A stretch of DNA of 9,694 bases, from IMG/VR virus record IMGVR_UViG_2778261203_000001; one strand, written 5' to 3'. The notes under the pieces are model-generated. The model saw only the letters and a program-made list of their open reading frames with translations. It did not search any database and had not been told where the DNA came from. Position numbers and translations under genes: made by a program. The DNA is from a virus. Taxonomy: Duplodnaviria; Heunggongvirae; Uroviricota; Caudoviricetes. Positions 1-9,694 of the stretch are shown here, piece by piece (within the stretch, counting starts at the first letter, position 1; each line of letters opens with the position of its first letter).

Positions 1-416
1 GCCAGTTCCGGGTATTCTTCAGCAGAAAAAGCCGCACCATTGCATTTCAGCCAGCCTGTCGGCGGAGTGGCGGAAGGCCACGGAACAGGCACACCGACAG
101 GTAATGCAGAGCCTTCTCCCAAACCAAGGTTTTCGAGAGCCGTTTTCACCGTGCCATCCGATTTGATATCGCCAAACGGATTCTTGCGGCTTAACAGCAG
201 CGCACGAAGCGCGGTAAGCAGCTGGTCATGCCGCCCCTTCTCCAGGCTGGCACCGGATGCCTCCACCACGCTGCAGAGTTCTTCCTGCAACATATCAAAG
301 TAGTCATCATCCAGATCGGTGGCAGGTGTGCCGGTCTGGGGGTTACCACGGGTAAAACCGTTTTTACCCGCGCCGAACTTATCCTTCTGCGCGGTTTTCG
401 TGTCTATACGATGCAT
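1..416 (-). CDS. Side tail fibre protein, N-terminal part (5' partial; gene continues past window start)
   Basis: Minus-strand ATG at 416-414, directly after the stop of the upstream gene (420-422). My translation: [47 protein letters not shown]...[47 protein letters not shown]. The GxGxxSA(L/F)PxGxPxPWP...GW/Y...G segment resembles the collar region of lambda Stf / e14 StfP-type fibres (recalled). Not in the ORF track because the reading frame runs off the window. Confidence 0.75.
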
Positions 417-419
417 GGA

Positions 420-1004
420 TTACTCCGGATATTTAAAAATTACGTAGGTATGCGACGGGCAGAGTTTGTTAAGCACACACTCGACAACGGTGTCGCCCCA
501 GATACGCAGTGCGGAATCACAGGGATCGCCACATGTCATCCAGGTGGTGTTGGTGGCGGCTGGCATGTTGACCTGCCAGTAATACCGCCATTCCGGCGCA
601 TTCACCGCGTCAGTACAGGCCGATGAGCAGGTGAACGTGCTTTTGTCGTATCGCGTGATGGTGGCGTCTGGTCTGCCCAGGGCAGCAAGCTGTGCAAGGT
701 AAAAATCCTCATTGATGCCGCCCGCCAGGTTAACCTTCGCATCCAGTCGTTGCTGACGCTGGCGAAGGGTCTGTGTCCCTGCGGGAATACATTCATCCGG
801 CAGGCCGCACAGACGCTCCCAGCGATTTATCAGTTCGGTGGTGGTGCGCGGATCCAGCTCCCGCATCAGGGCATCCGCACGCTGATGAACGCGGGTTAAT
901 GACGGTGCCGCACCGGCAATCGCCGGATTGCTGGCTGACCACGCCGGACCGGGGGGCAACAGTGCCGACAACAGACGGATGTAATCATCGTTTGTCACGT
1001 CCAT
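420..1004 (-). CDS. Mu gp48 / P2 gpI-like tail-baseplate protein (YmfQ-like, DUF2313 family)
   Basis: 194-aa ORF with ATG at 1004, overlapping the stop of the upstream J-like gene by 10 nt. Sits between a J-like gene and the tail fibre gene as in Mu-type tails. Family assignment from recalled similarity to e14 YmfQ-type proteins. Confidence 0.65.
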
Positions 1005-2053
1005 GAAATCGTCCCCAGTACCGCCAGTTCATTTTTTGCAATGGAGATATTGTCTGCCGGTGCAAACAACTGATGGCTGTATTCCCCGTTCGCACCGGAA
1101 ATCGCCTCACTGATACGCGACACCTTCAGTTCTCCCTGCGGATAACCATCACGCAGCAGGAACGAACGCAACTCGGCGGTGATGGCAGCCCGTATTTCCG
1201 GTGTGTCCGGCGTCACGCGGATATGAAAATCCACTTTATGCGCCACCGGCCTGAAGACATACAAATCAGAGCCTGCCACCGGGGCCAGTGGCCCGATATG
1301 TTGTCTTGCCGCCGTTTCCGTTGATTCTTCCGGAATGGGATTAATCAGGTCACTGCCGGCAATCATCACACCGACAGTTCCCGTTCCCATCCAGTGACGG
1401 TATGTCCATGCGCGGGTAATGCCGGGCACTTCTTTAGCCCAGACGACATAGTCCCCGTCAGCCCCGCCCTGAGGCGTCCAGTAATACCGCTCAATGACGC
1501 GGGCGCGCCACGTTTCCAGATCTTCAGTATCGAATCCGCCAGTCAGGGTATCTGCAACACCGGAAGACGGCAGACGATTCACCGGCGTGACCAGGATTAA
1601 TGCCGTACCGTCGTCAGCGTTACCGACCGCGCCTGCACTTGAGCAAGTGATCGGCACGCGCAGGACACCACCGGAGCTGGTTGCATCAGCAGTTGCCGTG
1701 TATTGAACCAGGTCAGCGCGCTGAATAACACTCCCGGCGGTCACCTTCAGGCCATCGCTGACACCTTCCCAGCGCATATACCCGCTGGCAGCCGTGGCCC
1801 CCTTGCGCGGACACCGTTTCATCGCAGCATGTCGCGCCAGCCAGGACTCATCGCACAGGTCAGGCAGCATGTTCATTGCCAGATAATCGATGTAACCGTA
1901 AACCGTATGCAGAGCCGCCGCATACACCTTTGCCCGCACGTCTTCATCCATGCGCCGGAGCGTGTCGCTGACGTCCAGCCTGGCGAATAAATCGTTACGG
2001 AGCATACTGATATTTTCTGCCAGCGTCGGGCGCTGAAATTCACTGTCCGCCAT
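995..2053 (-). CDS. Baseplate J-like protein (Mu gp47 / P2 gpJ family)
   Basis: 352-aa ORF with ATG at 2053. Size and position (after the W-like gene, before the I-like gene) match baseplate wedge protein J. Start overlaps the upstream gene and stop overlaps the downstream gene, suggesting translational coupling. Confidence 0.75.
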
Positions 2054-2468
2054 GCGTTATCGCACTCCACAGATCATCAAAAGAAATCATTACCGGTCCG
2101 TCACGACGCCAGAGGGTGATACTGTTACCCAGCTCATTAATCCCGGTGCGGCGGATATCCAGATCAATACGGGACACCACGCCGTCATCAATCATCCATT
2201 GCAGGCATTCGCGGATATATCCCCTTACCGTCTGCACCAGTTGATTGGTCAGTTTGCTGCGCTGAAGCAGCCACAGTCGGGAGCCGTAACGGTCATTCTG
2301 TACCGCAGGCCAGGTATCCCCCCACCATCCCATCGGGACGTCGGCGTTGTCATCAGGCTCCGCCCGCCGCCAGGTAAACAGGGAAATCACCACGGCGCGG
2401 GTCAGCGGATCCAGCGGTGCGCTGGCGCAGGTGCGTTTACCGTTCACCGTCAGCCACAGTTCCATCAT
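2040..2468 (-). CDS. Mu gp46 / P2 gpW-like baseplate protein
   Basis: 142-aa ORF beginning ATGATG at 2468; start overlaps the stop of the V-like gene (ATGA). Size and synteny (V-W-J-I order) typical of Mu-like baseplate modules. Confidence 0.7.
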   Translation of the reverse strand: MMELWLTVNGKRTCASAPLDPLTRAVVISLFTWRRAEPDDNADVPMGWWGDTWPAVQNDRYGSRLWLLQRSKLTNQLVQTVRGYIRECLQWMIDDGVVSRIDLDIRRTGINELGNSITLWRRDGPVMISFDDLWSAITHGGQ

Positions 2469-3013
2469 GCCTCCATCGCTTTATCCGGTTTGTCGGTGTT
2501 ACTGCCCTGACCGTTCTCTCTGTGACGATGCCCGTTATAGGCAAGCCGCATCGCTGACATGGTGGTACCGCCGGAGTCGCACAGGTCTTTCACCTGTCCG
2601 GTCACTTCCAGGTCCATTTCAAAACGTGCTCTGGGCGCATTGCGAAACGTGATCGTTTTACCTGCACCGTCCACCACGATCCCCTCCCGGGTCAGCGTCA
2701 CAGACTGCCCCTGATCGTCATAGACAGCCACCTCACCCGTCTGCAGCCCTTTCAGGCGGTAGCGCCGGTCCGACACCGTAACAACCACCGCATGAGAACG
2801 GTCGCCATCCGGAAACAACACCACCGCTTCCGCACCGCTGTTTGCCCTTGCGGTAAAACCGTAGGGTTCAAGATGTTCAATCCCGGCTTTGGGTTCACCG
2901 GCAATCAGGGACACATCCACGGTCTGACATTTCGTGGCGGCACTGATGCTTTTCACCACTGCCCGCCCAATCAGGCCGAGAAGTTGTCGCTGCATGGCTT
3001 CAATCGTCCTCAT
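2465..3013 (-). CDS. Baseplate assembly protein V / central spike (Mu gp45-like)
   Basis: 182-aa ORF with ATG at 3013, overlapping the stop of the upstream chimeric ORF (TGATG). C-terminal segment ...DLCDSGGTTMSAMRLAYNGHRH... resembles the conserved C-terminus of gpV-type spikes (recalled). Confidence 0.7.
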   Translation of the reverse strand: MRTIEAMQRQLLGLIGRAVVKSISAATKCQTVDVSLIAGEPKAGIEHLEPYGFTARANSGAEAVVLFPDGDRSHAVVVTVSDRRYRLKGLQTGEVAVYDDQGQSVTLTREGIVVDGAGKTITFRNAPRARFEMDLEVTGQVKDLCDSGGTTMSAMRLAYNGHRHRENGQGSNTDKPDKAMEA

Positions 3014-3720
3014 CAGAACGGGTCCTCCTGTACTCTGGCTTTTTTCTTTTTCCGCGCGCCGGGGTCTTCGGGTTCAGGCAGATAAGCATCAGGCGGGCCG
3101 ACACGGATTTCCGTCAGGGTGCCGTTCTGGTCCTGAGTAAACGTGACTTCCGAAACAAGCAGTTCGGTATTGTCGAAACCACAGACCGGATCAAAGACAA
3201 TCACCCGCTGGTTGGGCTGCCACAGCGTACCGTTACCCTGTCGCCAGCCCTGCACCACATAGGTGGTTTCATCCGTCCGCGCCGCCCGTTGCCGGGCTTC
3301 AAAGTCAGCACGCGCAATACAGCCAGCCCCCGTGGCCTGCCCTGTCTGCCTGATATACATCGGACGGTAACGGGCAATAAATGCGTCCTCTGTGCGGGCC
3401 CGCAGCGCGGTGGTGGTGGCCTCACCGAAATCATCGTCGTTTCCGGCACGCTGCCCCGCCACCTGGTAAACTGAAAACCGCTCCCGGATACTCTTCTCCG
3501 TATCGCAGGAAAGGATGTTTTCCCCAAGTACCAGCGCGGTATGTGCCCGCGTTGAGCCAATAACATCCCACTTCGAACCATAACCGCGCTGATGACGGGA
3601 TTGTCCTGGCTTGTATTGCTTCCAGCCTTCGCTTTTGTGGCTTTCACAATAGCCTGACGGGTCTGTGGTGGTATGGCGGCAGCCACGAACACGGCAGGCT
3701 TTTGGGATTCGTGATGGCAT
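3013..3720 (-). CDS. Chimeric ORF: HNH endonuclease-like N-terminus fused to a tail/baseplate-hub-like C-terminus (probable deletion scar; may be a pseudogene)
   Basis: ATG at 3720 preceded by GGAG; the ORF track extends to a TTG at 3819. N-terminus MPSRIPKACRVRGCRHTTTDPSGYCESH...RGYGSKW matches the start of phage HNH endonucleases, but the second Cys pair and the His-Asn-His core expected after RGYGxxW are absent. The remaining ~180 aa is unrelated and is translationally coupled to the V-like gene, where a gp44/gpD-type hub gene would normally sit. Confidence 0.5.
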   Translation of the reverse strand: MPSRIPKACRVRGCRHTTTDPSGYCESHKSEGWKQYKPGQSRHQRGYGSKWDVIGSTRAHTALVLGENILSCDTEKSIRERFSVYQVAGQRAGNDDDFGEATTTALRARTEDAFIARYRPMYIRQTGQATGAGCIARADFEARQRAARTDETTYVVQGWRQGNGTLWQPNQRVIVFDPVCGFDNTELLVSEVTFTQDQNGTLTEIRVGPPDAYLPEPEDPGARKKKKARVQEDPF

Positions 3721-3817
3721 ATGTACTCCAATGAAGAAGCCACCGACATAGCCTCCTCCATTCATCGTGAAACTATTTTCATCTACCCAGTAATGAATTC
3801 TTTGTAGAGTTGTGATC

Positions 3818-3840
3818 AATACAACTCACTAATGGAGAGG
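3818..3840 (+). promoter_or_regulatory. T7-class single-subunit RNAP promoter-like motif
   Basis: AATACAACTCACTAATGGAGAGG against the T7 consensus TAATACGACTCACTATAGGGAGA: 13 of 14 positions match over -16 to -3 (the ACTCACTA core is identical), but the -2/-1 TA is AT and the initiating region diverges. Confidence 0.25.
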
Positions 3841-3862
3841 CTTGTCCAACACGTTGGACAAG
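3841..3862. repeat. Perfect 10-bp inverted repeat CTTGTCCAAC-AC-GTTGGACAAG (operator-like; as RNA a hairpin followed by a T-rich tract on the plus strand)
   Basis: Arms at 3841-3850 and 3853-3862 are exact reverse complements; followed on the plus strand by AGTTTCCTGTTTGATTT. Confidence 0.9.
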
Positions 3863-3873
3863 TTTCCTGTTTG

Positions 3874-3896
3874 ATTTACTGGACACTATAGAAGGA
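3874..3896 (+). promoter_or_regulatory. SP6-class single-subunit RNAP promoter-like motif
   Basis: ATTTACTGGACACTATAGAAGGA against the SP6 promoter ATTTAGGTGACACTATAGAAGAG: 18 of 23 match, including an identical 13-mer GACACTATAGAAG (-9 to +4) and the ATTTA at -17 to -13. The three upstream mismatches fall at -12 to -10. Confidence 0.35.
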
Positions 3897-3942
3897 CAGA
3901 ATGCCTTCATCACTCGAATAACATCAATTAAGGAGGTTCAAC

Positions 3943-4065
3943 ATGTTTCATTCCACAAATCATCAGGCTGTAATTATGGCTGCATCAGCTTGTGCCACAG
4001 ACCTTTTCCGCTTCACTTTGAGCCTGATTCATTTCTACCTGACCGGCTCGCCTCTATCTTTTTAA
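3943..4065 (+). CDS. Hypothetical small protein (40 aa)
   Basis: ATG at 3943 preceded by AAGGAGG with a 6-nt spacer; translation MFHSTNHQAVIMAASACATDLFRFTLSLIHFYLTGSPLSF, stop TAA at 4063-4065. Lies 52 nt downstream of the predicted +1 of the SP6-like motif. Too short for the ORF track; no homolog recognised. Confidence 0.3.
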   Translation: MFHSTNHQAVIMAASACATDLFRFTLSLIHFYLTGSPLSF

Positions 4066-4245
4066 TCCCCGCTTTATCCAAATTGCATTGCCAGAATGCC
4101 GACAACAGACTGACATTCAAATCCTGACTACCTCCAATAGTCTGACCGTACACCTATATAGTTTTAATTTTCATCAATCCATTTAACTATCGTTTAATTG
4201 TTGTCACATAGGATTCTGCCGTTTTTAACAATGCAGGATAATAAG

Positions 4246-4539
4246 ATGAAAAAAATGTTGTTTTCTGCCGCTCTGGCAATGCTTATTACAGGATGTGCTC
4301 AACAGACGTTTACTGTTGGAAACAAACCGACAGCAGTAACACCAAAGGAAACCATCACCCATCATTTCTTCGTTTCGGGAATTGGACAGGAGAAAACTGT
4401 TGATGCAGCCAAAATTTGTGGCGGCGCAGAAAATGTGGTTAAAACAGAAACCCAGCAAACATTCGTAAATGGATTGCTCGGTTTTATTACTTTAGGCATT
4501 TATACTCCGCTGGAAGCGCGGGTGTATTGCTCACAATAA
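4246..4539 (+). CDS. bor: Bor lipoprotein (lambda Bor / Iss family, serum-resistance-associated outer membrane lipoprotein)
   Basis: ATG at 4246 (MKKMLFSAALAMLITGC...) with AGGA upstream; 97 aa, lipobox LITGC. Near-identical by recollection to lambda Bor (...ETITHHFFVSGIGQ.KTVDAAKICGGAENVVKTETQQTFVNGLLGFITLGIYTPLEARVYCSQ). The track ORF from 4198 is an upstream extension. Confidence 0.9.
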   Translation: MKKMLFSAALAMLITGCAQQTFTVGNKPTAVTPKETITHHFFVSGIGQEKTVDAAKICGGAENVVKTETQQTFVNGLLGFITLGIYTPLEARVYCSQ

Positions 4540-4549
4540 TTGCATGAGT

Positions 4550-4567
4550 TGCCCATCGATATGGGCA
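4550..4567. other. Hairpin between convergent bor and Rz (TGCCCAT-CGAT-ATGGGCA)
   Basis: 7-bp perfect stem with 4-nt loop in the 31-bp gap between the bor stop (4537-4539) and the Rz stop (4571-4573). No U-tract on either side, so terminator function is uncertain. Confidence 0.3.
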
Positions 4568-4570
4568 GCG

Positions 4571-5032
4571 CTATCTGCACTGCTCATTAATATACTTCTG
4601 GGTTCCTTCCAGTTGTTTTTGCATCGTGATCAGCCTCTCTCTGAGGGTGAAATAATCCCGTTCAGCGGTGTCTGCCAGTCGGGGGGAGGCTGCATTATCC
4701 ACGCCGGAGGCGGTGGTGGCTTCACGCACTGACTGACAGACTGCTTTGATGTGCAACCGACGACGACCAGCGGCAACATCATCACGCAGAGCATCATTTT
4801 CAGCTTTCGCATCAGCTAACTCCTTCGTGTATTTTGCATCGAGCGCAGCAACATCACGCTGACGCATCTGCATGTCAGTAATTGCCGCGTTCGCTAGCTT
4901 CAGTTCTCTGGCATTTTTGTCGCGCTGGACTTTGTAGGCGATTGCGTTATCACGGTAATGATTGACCGCCCATGACAGGCTGACGATGATGCAGATAATC
5001 AGAGCGGATATAATCGCGGTTACTCTGCTCAC
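4571..5032 (-). CDS. Rz: Rz i-spanin (inner-membrane spanin subunit)
   Basis: Translation from ...[34 protein letters not shown]... to ...QKYINEQCR closely matches lambda Rz (recalled). Start placed at the GTG at 5032, which overlaps the endolysin stop (GTGA) and gives 153 aa; the track ORF starts at a further-upstream GTG at 5044. Confidence 0.85.
4630..4812 (-). CDS. Rz1: Rz1 o-spanin (outer-membrane lipoprotein spanin subunit), embedded in Rz in the +1 frame
   Basis: [60 protein letters not shown]; lipobox VVGC; proline-rich; AAGGAG RBS 7 nt upstream of the ATG at 4812. Near-identical to lambda Rz1 (recalled). Confidence 0.85.
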
Positions 5033-5526
5033 TGTTGCCCCCACAAACAGACTTCACGCTCAATCTCACGACGAGTCATCAGGCCTTTCCATTGCTTACC
5101 GCCAGCGTATGTCCAGCGACGCAGCTGATCACATGCGCCTTTGATATCGCCCTGGTTTATTTTGCGAAGAAGCGTCGATGTTCTAAAATTGCCAGCACCC
5201 ACGTTGTAAACGAATGAGTAAAGAGCGCCGCGCGTTGTTTCCGGTATATCGACTTTGATATACGGGTTAATTTGTCTGGCGACAGTGGCAAGGTCTTTAT
5301 TCAAGAGTGCTTTGCATTCTGCTTTGGTATACGTTTTACCGAGCATGATGTCTTTTCCGGTGTGTCCGTGACATACAGTCCATACACCAACAATATCTTT
5401 GTATGGTATGTAGCTGACACCTTCCAGACCATCGTTACCACTTGGGCCAGTGATTAACACTGATGCTATAGCAATTGCTCCGCCACCAATAGCAGCAGCA
5501 ACGGCTTTTCGTAATGATGGAGGCAT
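5029..5526 (-). CDS. R: SAR endolysin (phage-21 R21 / RrrD-type lysozyme with N-terminal signal-anchor-release domain)
   Basis: 165 aa. N-terminal Gly/Ala-rich weakly hydrophobic segment ([20 protein letters not shown]) followed by a lysozyme catalytic region (..[23 protein letters not shown]..). ATG overlaps the holin stop (TAATG). Confidence 0.9.
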
Positions 5527-5741
5527 TATTCACCTCTCGCAGCCTTGCGCTTATCTTCTTTAATCTTGAAATAAAGGTTTGTCAGGTACGTCAGCAGGCC
5601 AAATACCAGGCTACCCAGCACACCTATTGCTGCCCACTGTGAGGGAGTGACTTTATCTAGCAGCTGTAAAAACCAGTACCCGGCACTACCTGCTGAGGTG
5701 CCATAGGCGACACCCGTTGTTAACTTATCCATGGATTTCAT
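5526..5741 (-). CDS. S: Class II holin / pinholin (phage-21 S21 / EssD-type) with dual-start motif
   Basis: 71 aa, [28 protein letters not shown]...[35 protein letters not shown]; two predicted TMDs. Met1 (5741) and Met4 (5732) give the classic antiholin/holin dual start; GAGGTGG upstream. Confidence 0.9.
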
Positions 5742-6313: not shown

Positions 6314-7411
6314 ATGAAAAAATTAACAGTGGCAATTTCTGCTGTAGCTGCATCAGTACTGATGGCGATGTCTGCTCAGGCAGCTGAAATTTATAATAAA
6401 GACAGTAACAAGCTGGATCTGTACGGGAAAGTTAATGCTAAGCACTACTTCTCCTCTAATGATGCAGATGATGGTGATACTACTTATGCCCGTCTTGGCT
6501 TCAAAGGTGAAACCCAAATCAACGATCAACTGACTGGTTTCGGTCAGTGGGAATATGAATTCAAAGGCAACCGCGCTGAATCTCAAGGTTCCTCCAAAGA
6601 TAAAACCCGTCTTGCCTTCGCTGGCCTGAAATTCGGTGACTACGGCTCCATCGATTACGGCCGTAACTACGGTGTAGCATACGACATCGGTGCGTGGACT
6701 GACGTCCTGCCAGAATTCGGTGGTGACACTTGGACTCAAACCGACGTGTTCATGACTCAACGTGCAACTGGTGTTGCAACCTATCGTAACAACGACTTCT
6801 TTGGTCTGGTTGATGGTCTGAACTTTGCTGCTCAGTACCAAGGCAAAAACGATCGTAGCGATTTCGATAACTACACTGAAGGTAACGGTGATGGCTTCGG
6901 TTTCTCTGCTACCTATGAATACGAAGGATTCGGTATCGGTGCAACTTATGCGAAATCTGATCGTACCGACACTCAAGTTAATGCAGGGAAAGTTCTTCCT
7001 GAAGTATTTGCTTCCGGTAAAAATGCAGAAGTTTGGGCCGCAGGTCTGAAATATGACGCTAACAACATTTACCTGGCCACTACCTATTCTGAAACCCAGA
7101 ATATGACTGTATTTGCTGATCACTTCGTTGCTAATAAAGCCCAAAACTTCGAAGCTGTTGCACAATATCAGTTCGATTTCGGTCTGCGTCCGTCCGTTGC
7201 TTACCTGCAATCTAAAGGTAAGGATCTTGGAGTATGGGGCGATCAGGACTTAGTCAAATATGTTGATGTAGGTGCAACCTATTACTTCAACAAAAATATG
7301 TCTACTTTCGTTGATTACAAAATCAACCTGCTTGACAAAAATGACTTCACTAAAGCACTCGGTGTAAGCACTGATGACATCGTTGCTGTAGGTCTGGTTT
7401 ACCAGTTCTAA
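6314..7411 (+). CDS. nmpC: General porin of the OmpC/OmpF/PhoE family, phage-borne (NmpC / Lc type)
   Basis: 365 aa starting [23 protein letters not shown]|AEIYNKD (signal peptide), C-terminus ...VAVGLVYQF with terminal Phe typical of outer-membrane beta-barrels. Matches NmpC of DLP12 by recollection. Start at 6314 preferred over the track's upstream ATG at 6254. Confidence 0.9.
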
Positions 7412-7600: not shown

Positions 7601-7984
7601 TTAATTAGAGTTATTAACAACGATATCCATCTCTAACCGGATATCTAATGCCATTAACATCCCTTCAATTATGCCCTCAGCCTTCTGTAACCTTTTCCCG
7701 ATATAACCATCAGAGCAGCAATGCTTACCTGCCAGTGACATGAATGTCATACCGACTACATAATAATCTACTAATAAATCGTGCAAATCGCTGTTGTTCT
7801 TTTTCAGACGGGCCATGCACCCGCAAATGATCATCGCGTCATCGTCACAACATTGCGGGCGAGATTTTACTTTTGAAGTAATTAATCCCTTAAAACCGGC
7901 GGCAATGGACGACCAGGTCACATCTTCATGATTATTAGCCGCCCACGCTCCCCAACGCTCAAGAACCATCTGAATATCACGCAT
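7601..7984 (-). CDS. quuD: Late-gene antiterminator Q (small Q21/QuuD-type)
   Basis: 127 aa from ATG at 7984 ([24 protein letters not shown]...), preceded by GGAG; Cys-rich motifs [12 protein letters not shown] and HCC. The track ORF begins at an upstream TTG (7999). Matches DLP12 QuuD by recollection. Confidence 0.8.
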
Positions 7985-8069
7985 CAACTTACTCCACAAA
8001 AATCAGACCAGAACGCCAATTACAAGCAAAAATCAACAAAACAGTATTAGTTGATTGTTATCTCTGACT

Positions 8070-8210
8070 TCATACTCCTGCTCCTGTCAGGGTTTTGGCG
8101 TAATTCTTCAGTATTCGGTAATCGGTCAAAACAGAACCGGGGAAACGATATAAGCGCAGACGCCCCCAGCGGTGGCGAAGAAGTTCTGCCATATTAAACT
8201 CAAACATCAT
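8070..8210 (-). CDS. ylcG: YlcG-like small protein (46 aa)
   Basis: Translated by hand: [46 protein letters not shown]. The ATG overlaps the rusA stop (ATGA). Below the ORF-track length cutoff. Confidence 0.7.
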
Positions 8211-8569
8211 TCATTCCCCATTTCGGTGATGGTCAGTTCCAGCCTCCCACCTTTGGTAACAAGCATCTTCACAACGCGGTAATCAACGACCTGAGCATCA
8301 TCCAGCCAGAAACCTGCTTTAGTGAGTGCGTCAAAAGCGGCTTTTTGCAGATTATCCAGGTCACGGCGACGGCGATCCGGCATGTGGCACTCAATGCGGA
8401 TTTTCACAGGCATAGCCAGGCCGATATCCAGCATTGCGTTTTTAATGATTCGGGCGACGTTATCGCGGTATGCCTGCCCCTCTGCGCTGACGTGCGTGCG
8501 CCCGCGATTATGGCGGTAATAGCGATTATTGCTCGGAGGCCAGGGTAATGTGATGCTGTAGGTATTCAC
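8207..8569 (-). CDS. rusA: RusA Holliday junction resolvase
   Basis: 120 aa, [46 protein letters not shown]...[38 protein letters not shown]...; acidic catalytic residues in the DLDN and DDAQ motifs. Matches DLP12/phage 82 RusA by recollection. Confidence 0.9.
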
Positions 8570-8856
8570 GCCTTAATAACCCCCTCTTTCAGCCAGATAA
8601 CCTGTGTTCTCGCCATACCTTCCAGCGCGCATTCTTTTGCATATCCAGCGTCAACAAAATGCGTGCGGCGGTCGATTTCGTCGTGGCAGGCAGAACATGC
8701 AATGGTGGCAATCAGGTCTGGCGGTTTCGTACCGGTGCCGCACAATCCAGTCAGCCGGATATGTGCCAGTACAGACGTTTCAGGGTTGCCATTACATACG
8801 CCAGGGATTCTTACCTGGCATTCCCGACCACGCGCTGCTTTTCTCAAATCAGCCAT
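8566..8856 (-). CDS. ybcO: YbcO-like zinc-binding putative nuclease (DUF1364)
   Basis: 96 aa from ATG at 8856 ([28 protein letters not shown]...[11 protein letters not shown]...), with AGGAGG RBS. The track ORF is extended upstream to 8895. Cys-rich CxVRIPGVC...CSAC pattern. Confidence 0.8.
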
Positions 8857-9019
8857 GACTCCTCCTTGCTGCCAGTCGCAACCATTTTTTATCAACCAAG
8901 CTGGCGGTATATCCGAGCAGTGTTGGTATTTCGGATGGCTTCAGCTCAGGTTTACGCTTACGACGATTTGGTACTCTGTAGATGTGTCCGTTCATGACAC
9001 GAATAAGCGGTGTAGCCAT
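8849..9019 (-). CDS. ninE: NinE
   Basis: 56 aa from the internal ATG at 9019 ([56 protein letters not shown]). Start overlaps the ybcN-like stop (TAATG); the 3' end overlaps the ybcO start by 8 nt. Confidence 0.8.
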   Translation of the reverse strand: MATPLIRVMNGHIYRVPNRRKRKPELKPSEIPTLLGYTASLVDKKWLRLAARRSHG

Positions 9020-9474
9020 TACGCCTCCTGCTTGTCGCGCAGCAGCTGGAACTCGCAGCTCTGTGGAATAGTCAGGTGGCAACCAATATTCATCGCCCAG
9101 GCTTCAACCTTACACAGGAAGACATACATCTCTCCGGTATCAAGATCGGAGGTATGGCGTAACGACTGGATAGTGGTGATATCACCGGTTACGACATCAA
9201 CCAGGTCTTTGGTTTCATAACCGAGATATGTGTGTTTGAGAGCATCTTTTACCCAAGCTGGAGTGGCGAACGTTTTACCCCTGCTGATGAGGTATTCACT
9301 GATTTCGCTGTACCACATGTGGCTGAGTGCATTCTGGGAAAGACTGCGTTTCTCACGCCACGGTTTAAGCACCATGCGAAAGCATTTGCCCTCCTCCAGA
9401 TAAGGCTGGATCTGCCGACCGATAGCGGTGAAGTTGCCGCGATGTAATTTGATGCCGTCTTGTGAGAGGTTCAC
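9019..9474 (-). CDS. ybcN: YbcN-like nin-region protein (151 aa)
   Basis: GTG start at 9474 preceded by GGAGGGGAAGC; [30 protein letters not shown]... First gene of the coupled ybcN-ninE-ybcO-rusA-ylcG chain. Identity recalled from DLP12. Confidence 0.75.
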
Positions 9475-9567
9475 GCTTCCCCTCCGCAGAGGTCAAACGC
9501 TAGATGCAAAGAATTGCAGGTGCATTTCTGCATCTGTGAAGGGAGAAGAGAGTTTGGATTGTATGTG

Positions 9568-9694
9568 TGGATTTGCCCCTATATTTCCAGACACCTGTTA
9601 TCACTTAACCCATTACTGGCCTGCTGCCGCAGATATTCCCGTGGCGAGCGATAACCCAGTGCACTATGCGGGTGCCATTCGTTATAATGCTCGA
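9568..9694 (-). mobile_element. IS2, right terminal ~127 bp including the terminal inverted repeat (partial; continues past window end)
   Basis: Minus-strand reading ends ...TAATGGGTTAAGTGATAACAGGTGTCTGGAAATATAGGGGCAAATCCA, which matches the recalled IS2 right end (...GGGGCAAATCCA terminus) with a few substitutions. Confidence 0.85.
9579..9694 (-). CDS. insD: IS2 transposase (InsD / OrfB) C-terminal fragment, 5' partial
   Basis: Minus-strand translation ...[37 protein letters not shown] with stop at 9579-9581; matches the recalled C-terminus of the IS2 transposase. Confidence 0.8.

Follow-up and report, generated by a model that had tools for sequence, protein, structure and literature searches.

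An in-frame fusion of HNH endonuclease and baseplate hub gene remnants in a probable cryptic lambdoid prophage of Escherichia coli

Genes for packaging-associated phage HNH endonucleases, whose zinc-ribbon motif type has been described, generally lie beside the terminase genes (PMC3592412). Members of this group include the HK97 gp74 type, the zinc-ribbon HNH nickases, and the protein solved as PDB 5H0M. The serotype-converting Shigella phages SfII, SfV, SfI, and SfIV are complete and inducible. SfI is a cos-packaging phage that was obtained by induction, and e14 of E. coli K-12 is reported to be related to SfV and SfI (PMC3636060). In e14, a Pin-invertible tail-fibre remnant prevents the adsorption of phage T2 (PMC12529663).

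The stretch analysed here (9,694 bp, hereafter the window) shares one part with the K-12 prophage DLP12 and another with the Shigella phages. As in DLP12, ybcN, ninE, ybcO, rusA, ylcG, quuD, an nmpC porin gene, essD, rrrD, rzpD, and bor are present; gene calls and Pfam found the order from ybcN to bor in two records of this element, L009 and the 100-kb contig L007. The identity to K-12-derived strains was 99% over window positions 9694-4192 (query 1-5503), and both elements are defective, with the morphogenetic block missing. However, the homology to the K-12-derived strains ends about 50 bp past bor, where the window continues with an HNH remnant and an SfV-type baseplate region; in K-12, the next genes of DLP12 are ybcV, ybcW, and a lambda-type Nu1 remnant (nohD). 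K-12-derived strains also have an annotated IS5 in this stretch, which interrupts nmpC, whereas the porin gene is intact in the window.

In SfII, SfV, SfI, SfIV, and the prophage of E. coli NADC1036, HNH is followed by terS and then by the rest of the structural block, which ends with the hub gene and V; the order of the parts kept in the window is the same. The baseplate region from the 3' part of the hub gene to gp48 was 97.9% and 97.8% identical to SfII and NADC1036, respectively, with no gaps, and the 5' part of the HNH gene was 89.6% identical to SfII. Unlike these complete phages, the window lacks 14,023 bp of the structural block. We consider it very probable that the window is part of a cryptic lambdoid E. 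coli prophage in which one deletion of about 14.0 kb generated an HNH'::'hub fusion, and that the hybrid is likely non-functional. The features are as follows.

1-416, minus strand: tail-fibre gene, first 139 codons (Collar domain), running off the contig (gene call; Pfam PF07484 in L009 and L007)
420-1004, minus strand: baseplate wedge gene gp48/YmfQ, intact (Pfam; 191/194 aa identical to SfII)
995-2053, minus strand: baseplate wedge gene J/gp47, intact (Pfam; 347/352 aa identical to SfII)
2040-2468, minus strand: baseplate wedge gene gp46, intact (Pfam; 142/142 aa identical to SfII)
2465-3013, minus strand: baseplate spike gene V (Mu gp45/gpV), intact (Pfam Phage_Mu_Gp45; 182/182 aa identical to SfII)
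3013-3720, minus strand: chimeric open reading frame, HNH codons 1-54 in frame with baseplate-hub codons 177-359 (235 aa plus stop)
3013-3562, minus strand: Mu gp44/GpP-type baseplate hub gene, 3' remnant encoding just the third and fourth domains (Pfam; DNA identity)
3560-3562, minus strand: deletion junction, 3-nt microhomology TAT common to both parents (three-way alignments; BLAST overlap q6133-6135)
3560-3720, minus strand: packaging-type HNH endonuclease gene, 5' remnant of 161 nt (aligns up to 3560 with HNH of NADC1036, G4/9, and SfII)
3721-4242, no strand: AT-rich spacer of 522 bp separating bor from the start of HNH, inherited intact from the parent prophage
3837-3866: 13-pair hairpin in the spacer (terminator-like match)
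about 4013-4141, minus strand: Rz1-like pseudogene relic in the spacer (L016 and L017 have an annotated Rz1 fragment at the corresponding position)
4243-4539, plus strand: bor/iss lipoprotein gene (Pfam Lambda_Bor, E 6.6e-31; called iss in relatives)
4571-5044, minus strand: spanin gene rzpD (Pfam, ORFs; name from relatives)
4630-4812, minus strand: Rz1-type ORF embedded in rzpD (the lysis cassette overall spans 4571-5741)
5029-5526, minus strand: lysozyme gene rrrD (Pfam, ORFs; name from relatives)
5526-5741, minus strand: P21-type holin gene essD (Pfam, ORFs; name from relatives)
6314-7411, plus strand: nmpC-type porin gene, 365 aa, intact (Pfam Porin_1, E 5.6e-157; gene call)
7601-9572, minus strand: DLP12-type nin/Q region with ylcH, ybcN, ninE, ybcO, rusA, ylcG, and quuD (L009 gene calls with Pfam; names from relatives)

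Composition of the chimeric open reading frame

The chimeric open reading frame starts with an ATG at 3720 and ends with a stop codon at 3015-3013 on the minus strand, encoding 235 aa. Residues 1-54 (MPSR...RGYGSKWDVI) were identical (54/54) to the N-terminus of the 116-aa packaging-type HNH endonuclease of NADC1036 and G4/9, and residues 54-235 were identical (182/182) to the C-terminus of the 359-aa Mu gp44/GpP-type baseplate hub of the hub parents. The profiles of PHROGs and Pfam placed the boundary at residue 54/55. PHROG 144 'HNH endonuclease' matched aa 1-54 when the N-terminal part was scanned alone (E 1.8e-14), PHROG 177 'baseplate hub' matched residues 55-233 (E 1.6e-81), and Pfam GpP_4th and NMB1110_3rd matched the hub-derived part. 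The first-pass annotation had read the ORF starting at 3720 as an HNH::tail chimera. Indeed, the profiles and the identities to two separate parents agree on this, and the protein divides between two families instead of matching one of them from end to end; only the proposed sizes need correction, from 234 to 235 aa for the whole and from about 60 to 54 residues for the HNH part. The composition is settled by the DNA-level identity to both parents, and the ORF at 3013-3720 should be labelled a fusion pseudogene rather than a 'baseplate protein' or an 'HNH endonuclease'.

The HNH remnant has kept its native start, and the catalytic HNH domain is missing. Pfam HNH (PF01844) matched neither the whole chimera nor its first 52 residues, because in the intact 116-aa parent the domain occupies aa 66-112, past the breakpoint at aa 54. 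It is PHROGs, not Pfam, that names this N-terminal part. C9, C14, C25, and H28 of the remnant may represent an N-terminal Cys/His zinc-ribbon-like region. The HNH parent is a full-length homologue of PDB 5H0M, and in every intact relative examined the gene lies directly upstream of terS, in agreement with the earlier remark that the HNH gene adjoins the terminase genes in HK97-like and many lambdoid genomes (a general pattern, PMC3592412). In contrast to these packaging-associated enzymes, the window retains only the non-catalytic N-terminus, residues 1-54. The remnant is not beside terminase genes, which are absent from both the window and L007, nor, probably, beside cos.

The hub parent carries all four Pfam domains (GpP-like_1st, Gp44-like_2nd, 3rd, and GpP_4th) and aligned over its full length with Mu gp44 (gene P; PDB 1WRU, E 1.7e-50) and with the MuSo2 43-kDa tail protein (PDB 3CDD, E 4.3e-52). 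In comparison with these hubs, the chimera keeps the C-terminal part without GpP-like_1st and Gp44-like_2nd: Pfam detected only the third and fourth domains in it, domains 1 and 2 of the parent (aa 5-177) being missing, and the breakpoint falls exactly at the Pfam domain boundary, hub aa 177. Over window positions 2800-3562, which take in the hub remnant and the first part of V, the identity was 100% with strain 41 of E. coli and 99.1% with SfII. As in SfII and NADC1036, the hub sequence lies directly upstream of the gp45/V spike gene. Its stop codon overlaps the start of V (TGATG at 3011-3015) just as in intact phages, which agrees with the coupling to V that had been noted before. No internal stops were found in gp46, J/gp47, or gp48/YmfQ.

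Breakpoints and extent of the deletion

The prophage of NADC1036 was used as the intact reference for mapping the breakpoints. Homology on the left stops at nt 161 of the HNH gene (codon 54) and that on the right begins at nt 531 of the hub gene (codon 177), with flank identities of 98.8% and 97.8%, respectively. The two breakpoints are 14,023 bp apart on the NADC1036 prophage, and the intervening DNA is absent from the window. The missing block comprises the catalytic domain of HNH, 17 whole genes from terminase to the DNA-circularisation protein (including terS, terL, and the portal, protease, major capsid, connector, sheath, tube, chaperone, tape-measure, and DNA-circularisation genes), and hub domains 1-2. 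The cos site was probably lost with this block as well, given that the linear record of SfII ends at the HNH stop codon. These findings confirm the deletion proposed in the first-pass annotation, running from within HNH to within the gene upstream of V and leaving an in-frame hybrid, here of HNH codon 54 and hub codon 177.

No terminase, portal, capsid, sheath, tube, or tape-measure gene was found in the window or in its 20.7-kb context in L007, where genes were surveyed 10 kb either side of the junction; the terminase-to-tape-measure genes missing here are present in intact relatives. The absence of these genes had already been recognised in the window, and the larger contig extends it. By comparison with NADC1036, the prophage would be unable to make virions, as had been suggested.

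When the joint was checked for microhomology, 3 nt (TAT) were found, and the alignments with the parents revealed no IS element or long repeat there. The join is thus attributed to illegitimate recombination. The chance of a microhomology of at least 3 nt was estimated at about 5%, so that 3 nt is only marginally above chance and too little to point to a repair pathway. An IS-mediated deletion was rejected, the joint and its surroundings being free of IS elements.

None of the known genomes matches the left and the right flank at 100% each; the closest relatives of the two are different strains, and the exact ancestor has accordingly not been seen.

Origin of the joint and fate of the hybrid

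The ancestor would have had early, Q, porin, and lysis genes of the DLP12 type, combined with an SfV/SfII/e14-type structural module, that is, an HK97-like head and a Mu-like contractile tail. A single illegitimate recombination at the microhomology level would then have removed about 14.0 kb between HNH codon 54 and hub codon 177, taking the two N-terminal ring-forming domains of the hub along with the packaging, head, and most tail genes. The in-frame joint would be fortuitous, with the ribosome-binding site and start codon of HNH now presumably driving a 235-aa hybrid whose stop remains coupled to the baseplate V gene through TGATG. The resulting element is predicted neither to package DNA nor to build heads or tails. 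The hybrid may be co-transcribed with the late operon, and in all likelihood it is a by-product without a function.

The window is a short contig from a draft assembly, which might suggest a short-read mis-assembly, but the junction is real: 13 contigs, the 100-kb one among them, encode the identical 235-aa protein, and they stem from 3 NCBI assemblies plus no fewer than 5 independently assembled sequencing runs (hence at least 8 independent assemblies). Carrier strains include GCA_002468085.1, GCA_002233195.1, and GCA_021915725.1. Moreover, the 3 nt common at the joint are too few to mislead an assembler. We regard an artefact as practically negligible. The junction is also rare. None of 5,426 complete E. 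coli genomes contained it, and the carrier lineage of the window is the only one in which HNH codon 54 was found joined to hub codon 177. A 48-nt exact junction pattern gave 0 matches among one genome per species, a result that carries no information, as E. coli has a single representative there. Illegitimate recombination between two prophages of one chromosome, a DLP12-like one with bor-HNH and an SfV/e14-like one with the baseplate genes, would imply a larger chromosomal rearrangement instead of a deletion inside one prophage. The nearest relatives of each flank are consistent with this, as they belong to different strains, and so is the upstream context in L007, where emrE, ybcK, ybcL, and ybcM, as read from the Pfam gene list, are probably the DLP12 context of K-12; elements with the SfV-type module lie beside a tRNA-Thr gene and pao genes or beside intS and a tRNA-Arg gene. 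Nevertheless, G4/9, VG888, and LR-46 have single prophages of the same order (porin, essD, rrrD, rzpD, iss, HNH, terS ... J, ymfQ, fibre, pin, GIY-YIG, AraC, rve fragment), L007 and the G4/9 prophage are collinear over the whole element, from ybcN as far as the AraC gene and rve fragment, and the flanks share the orientation and order expected for a simple internal deletion. An origin from two prophages therefore seems very improbable.

The hybrid might also have been domesticated and selected, alone or with the V/gp46/J/gp48/fibre/Pin cassette, for instance in phage defence or as a cell-surface factor, instead of being a neutral scar. The native start and the translational coupling to V are kept in the in-frame fusion, the break at a domain boundary preserves whole domains (the zinc-ribbon-like N-terminus and hub domains 3-4), and the four baseplate genes downstream are intact. 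Furthermore, E. coli LR-46 has an independent in-frame HNH' fusion, the two breaks being 20 nt apart and each at a G-TAT microhomology, and the T2-blocking remnant of e14 offers a precedent (PMC12529663). However, that precedent concerns the fibre and Pin segment and not the hub, an in-frame outcome has a 1-in-3 chance, and the losses include the catalytic part of HNH and the domains with which the hub forms its trimeric ring, with sheath, tube, and tape measure absent. The lack of the junction in the complete genomes also speaks against selection, and the 7 carrier contigs besides that of the window itself were 100% identical to it wherever they overlapped, indicating a recent event with no signal of selection. 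We thus judge domestication highly unlikely. The same applies to a more specific proposal, to which we give only a slender chance, that the zinc-ribbon/hub fusion and the V-to-Pin cassette form a host module for receptor masking or anti-phage activity, with the left HNH edge as a preferred domestication breakpoint. The alternative in the first-pass annotation, a tail-fibre/baseplate cassette kept for another use, is conceivable but not required to explain the locus. A tailocin or other contractile injection device was rejected, since sheath, tube, and tape measure are absent and the hub is without its ring-forming half.

The single internal deletion, our preferred reading, has parallels: in e14, G4/9, strain 41, VG888-46E9, and LR-46, the same structural-module family has decayed, with internal deletions fusing unrelated gene fragments. 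The joint in G4/9 is terL'::'J and thus differs from that of the window, those in LR-46 are hub'::'J and HNH'::'tail-assembly, and VG888 has IS1 at the capsid gene (the LR-46 d2 and d3 and the G4/9 junctions were located by BLAST coordinates). Each of these lineages has its own breakpoints, independent of those of the window. Taken together with the alleles of G4/9, LR-46, strain 41, and VG888, the scar suggests that the SfV-type morphogenetic block is repeatedly lost via short-homology or IS-mediated deletions. Lysis, bor/iss, and porin genes stay behind in the remnants, as do the distal genes for the tail fibre and Pin. The deletion scar is ordinary, routine prophage decay, mapped here to the base, and its importance is slight outside annotation, where the element is to be scored as a defective prophage, predicted to be unable to package DNA or form particles.

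The region upstream of the fusion

The lysis cassette had been described as abutting the chimeric ORF; this does not hold, as bor on the opposite strand and the 522-bp spacer intervene. Window positions 3560-4300 were 100% or 99.9% identical in the 25 listed complete E. coli genomes with an intact HNH gene. The position of the porin gene, with Q on one side and the lysis cassette on the other, is that seen in DLP12. No RNA family was found when the entire window was scanned with Rfam, and a sigma-70-like promoter scan of 2900-4700 found 0 matches against 1.6 expected by chance. In the same interval, 4 terminator-like matches were obtained against 2.1 expected, among which the hairpin at 3837-3866 alone is notable.

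Gene arrangement and the composite reading frame

The window was 100% identical over its 9,694 bp, in reversed orientation, to contig NMNN01000048.1 of assembly GCA_002468085.1.

Features of the window, in minus-strand order
minus strand: ylcH, ybcN, ninE, ybcO, rusA, ylcG and quuD, the first genes
6314-7411, plus (opposite) strand: intact nmpC-type porin gene (365 aa), after quuD
4571-5741, minus strand: essD, rrrD and rzpD (P21-type holin, lysozyme, and Rz with embedded Rz1)
4243-4539, plus (opposite) strand: bor/iss
3721-4242: AT-rich spacer of 522 bp between bor and the chimeric ORF
3013-3720, minus strand: chimeric ORF, with its ATG at 3720
downstream of the chimeric ORF, minus strand: Mu-type baseplate genes gp45/V, gp46, J/gp47 and gp48/YmfQ
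after gp48/YmfQ, to the window end, minus strand: first 139 codons of a tail-fibre gene

The spacer has a G+C content of ~40%, and the value rises to ~58-60% across the baseplate genes. The lysis genes and bor had been described as running directly into the ORF; this detail needs correction, because bor lies on the other strand and the spacer intervenes. Relatives bear an annotated 'Rz1 lytic protein' pseudogene fragment at the place equivalent to 4013-4141 (minus strand), and this relic points to an older scar of the lysis cassette. The spacer also contains a perfect 13-pair hairpin (3837-3866); on the plus strand, a T-rich tail comes directly after it. The nmpC gene at 6314-7411 is uninterrupted; in the matching K-12-derived strains (EV36 and KMS), IS5 is annotated in the corresponding stretch, and we take IS5 to interrupt nmpC in such strains.

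The ORF encodes a protein of 235 aa. PHROG 144 'HNH endonuclease' matched residues 1-54 (E 4e-13; 1.8e-14 when that part was scanned alone), and PHROG 177 'baseplate hub' matched residues 55-233 (E 1.6e-81). Pfam matches were confined to residues 81-216, where domains three and four of the Mu GpP / NMB1110 hub family were found; the N-terminus had no match. Residues 1-54 were identical (54/54) to the HNH proteins of the NADC1036 and G4/9 prophages, and the last 182 residues (182/182) to the hubs of NADC1036 and strain 41; furthermore, the stop codon overlaps the V start (TGATG) as at the native hub-V boundary. The two-part HNH/baseplate make-up proposed in the first-pass annotation therefore stands, with the length corrected from 234 to 235 aa and the HNH part from ~60 to 54 residues.

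When intact, the HNH parent is a protein of 116 aa whose residues 66-112 form the Pfam HNH domain; its alignment with the solved structure of the phage HNH protein 5H0M spans the entire sequence. The chimera retains only its Cys/His-rich N-terminus (C9, C14, C25 and H28), which may resemble the N-terminal zinc ribbons of the HNH nickases that phages encode beside cos (PMC3592412). The hub parent has 359 aa and four Pfam domains, and it is homologous along its whole length to Mu gp44 (1WRU) and to the MuSo2 43-kDa tail protein (3CDD); it is cut where its second domain ends (residue 177), and the first two domains are consequently gone. Since both the HNH catalytic domain and hub domains 1-2 are absent, the chimera is not expected to have either parental function.

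Breakpoints and extent of the deletion

When window 2800-4300 was used as a megablast query against phage and E. coli genome collections, two non-overlapping sets of matches were obtained: 4300-3661, comprising bor, the spacer and the 5' part of the HNH gene, and 3562-2800, comprising the 3' part of the hub gene and V (99.1% identity in SfII and 100% in E. coli strain 41). None of the 5,426 complete E. coli genomes gave a query coverage of at least 80%. The left part alone (3560-4300) matched at full length in at least 25 complete genomes with 100% or 99.9% identity, and every one of the 25 among the matches listed was annotated with an intact HNH endonuclease adjoining iss.

NADC1036 and 14EC001 were the two genomes in which both halves were found, ~14 kb apart. 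In NADC1036 the prophage (L005) is complete: Rz is followed by iss, HNH, terS, terL, ymfR, portal, protease, capsid, and connector and terminator genes, and then by sheath, tube, chaperone, tape measure, DNA-circularisation protein, hub, V, gp46, J, YmfQ, fibres and pin. On L005, the left homology stops at HNH nt 161 (codon 54) and the right homology starts at hub nt 531 (codon 177). Placing both flanks bears out the earlier proposal of a deletion from within HNH to within the gene upstream of V: 14,023 bp are absent, namely 17 whole genes and parts of two. The SfII linear record stops at the HNH stop codon and its terS begins at nt 126; these positions lead us to place cos in the interval from HNH to terS, so that it would have been deleted as well.

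Microhomology at the junction, a point also raised in the first-pass annotation, amounted to 3 nt, the two homologies sharing TAT (window 3562-3560), or G-TAT with one mismatch allowed. No IS element, long repeat or att-like site was present at the joint. By our own estimate, a random joint shows an ambiguity of at least 3 nt with a chance of about 5%, so that the value is only marginally above chance. The joint is consistent with illegitimate recombination over a short homology, for instance by replication slippage or end joining, and does not in itself single out a pathway.

Occurrence of the junction

The exact 235-aa protein was found on 13 contigs, the 100-kb contig L007 being one of them; three NCBI assemblies and five or more sequencing runs, each assembled independently, supplied these contigs. 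The seven other carrier contigs fetched (L007, L008 and L010-L014) were 100% identical to the window in all overlaps, L007 and L008 over 9,567 bp. The junction is limited to a rare lineage, across whose members this region is near-identical. An assembly error as its source is excluded, because a 3-nt overlap is unable to produce a mis-join.

In L007, the DLP12-type genes emrE, ybcK, ybcL and ybcM lie upstream, and a tail fibre gene, assembly proteins, an inverted fibre segment, a Pin-type recombinase, a GIY-YIG protein, an AraC regulator and an integrase fragment lie downstream. No packaging or head genes were found in this neighbourhood, in agreement with their reported absence from the window. 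The final 127 nt of the window (9568-9694) match K-12-type DLP12 near the ybcM end and have no match in L007 or L008, both otherwise 100% identical to it; carriers therefore differ just upstream, by recombination or a different ybcM allele.

Repeated decay of the module in related prophages

Other deletions were found in relatives sharing the porin, essD, rrrD, rzpD, iss and HNH arrangement.

Deletions and insertions in related prophages
G4/9 (L006): terL fused to J (terL'::'J), junction at L006 17428-17433
strain 41 (L015): truncated hub joined to a yfdR fragment
VG888-46E9 (L016): IS1 after the capsid-gene start
LR-46 (L017): three deletions, one an in-frame HNH'::'tail-assembly fusion

The hub-V-gp46-J DNA of strain 41 is 99.96% identical to that of the window (1 mismatch in 2,626 bp), but its deletion is different and larger, joining the yfdR fragment to a longer hub remnant, and there is another deletion inside ymfQ. 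This remnant (L015 16687-19626) adjoins a tRNA-Thr gene. The LR-46 fusion (L017 11149-11454; junction 11284-11289), which arose independently of that in the window, keeps the same N-terminal part of HNH as far as RGY and continues into a fragment of a tail-assembly protein. Its HNH breakpoint lies 20 nt upstream of the window's; each joint follows a GTTAT pentamer in HNH and has G-TAT-type microhomology to the right-hand parent. This proximity could be coincidental or could mark a local hotspot of deletion.

Grounded prophages are well documented to degenerate through deletions (PMC6379469), and e14 of K-12 is a member of this structural family (PMC3636060). The event in the window, now precisely mapped, left a deletion scar of an ordinary sort in a defective DLP12-like / SfV-type prophage; events of this kind are well known, and this one gives a new allele. 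Because the HNH start and the coupling to V are retained, the hybrid could be translated if QuuD-dependent late transcription reads through; a priori, one joint in three would fall in frame. Cryptic prophages, DLP12 and e14 among them, add to the fitness of their hosts (PMC3105296). Domestication of the in-frame fusion or of the cassette is very improbable. For a cassette kept for another purpose, the sole precedent is in e14, where a Pin-invertible fibre segment blocks the adsorption of T2 (PMC12529663); that segment falls outside the window.

The right breakpoints of terL'::'J in G4/9 and of hub'::'J in LR-46 (L017 14154-14162) fall at one position in J (L005 36740 and 36741), which suggests an older J fragment shared and re-assorted by recombination, or a preferred break site. 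Near-identical porin/lysis/iss/HNH and SfV-type tail modules sit in differing chromosomal contexts in L005, L006, L015, L016, L017 and L007 (tRNA-Thr and pao genes; intS, tRNA-Arg and yfdC; beside csc genes; DLP12-like), indicating mobility or extensive recombination among these prophages.
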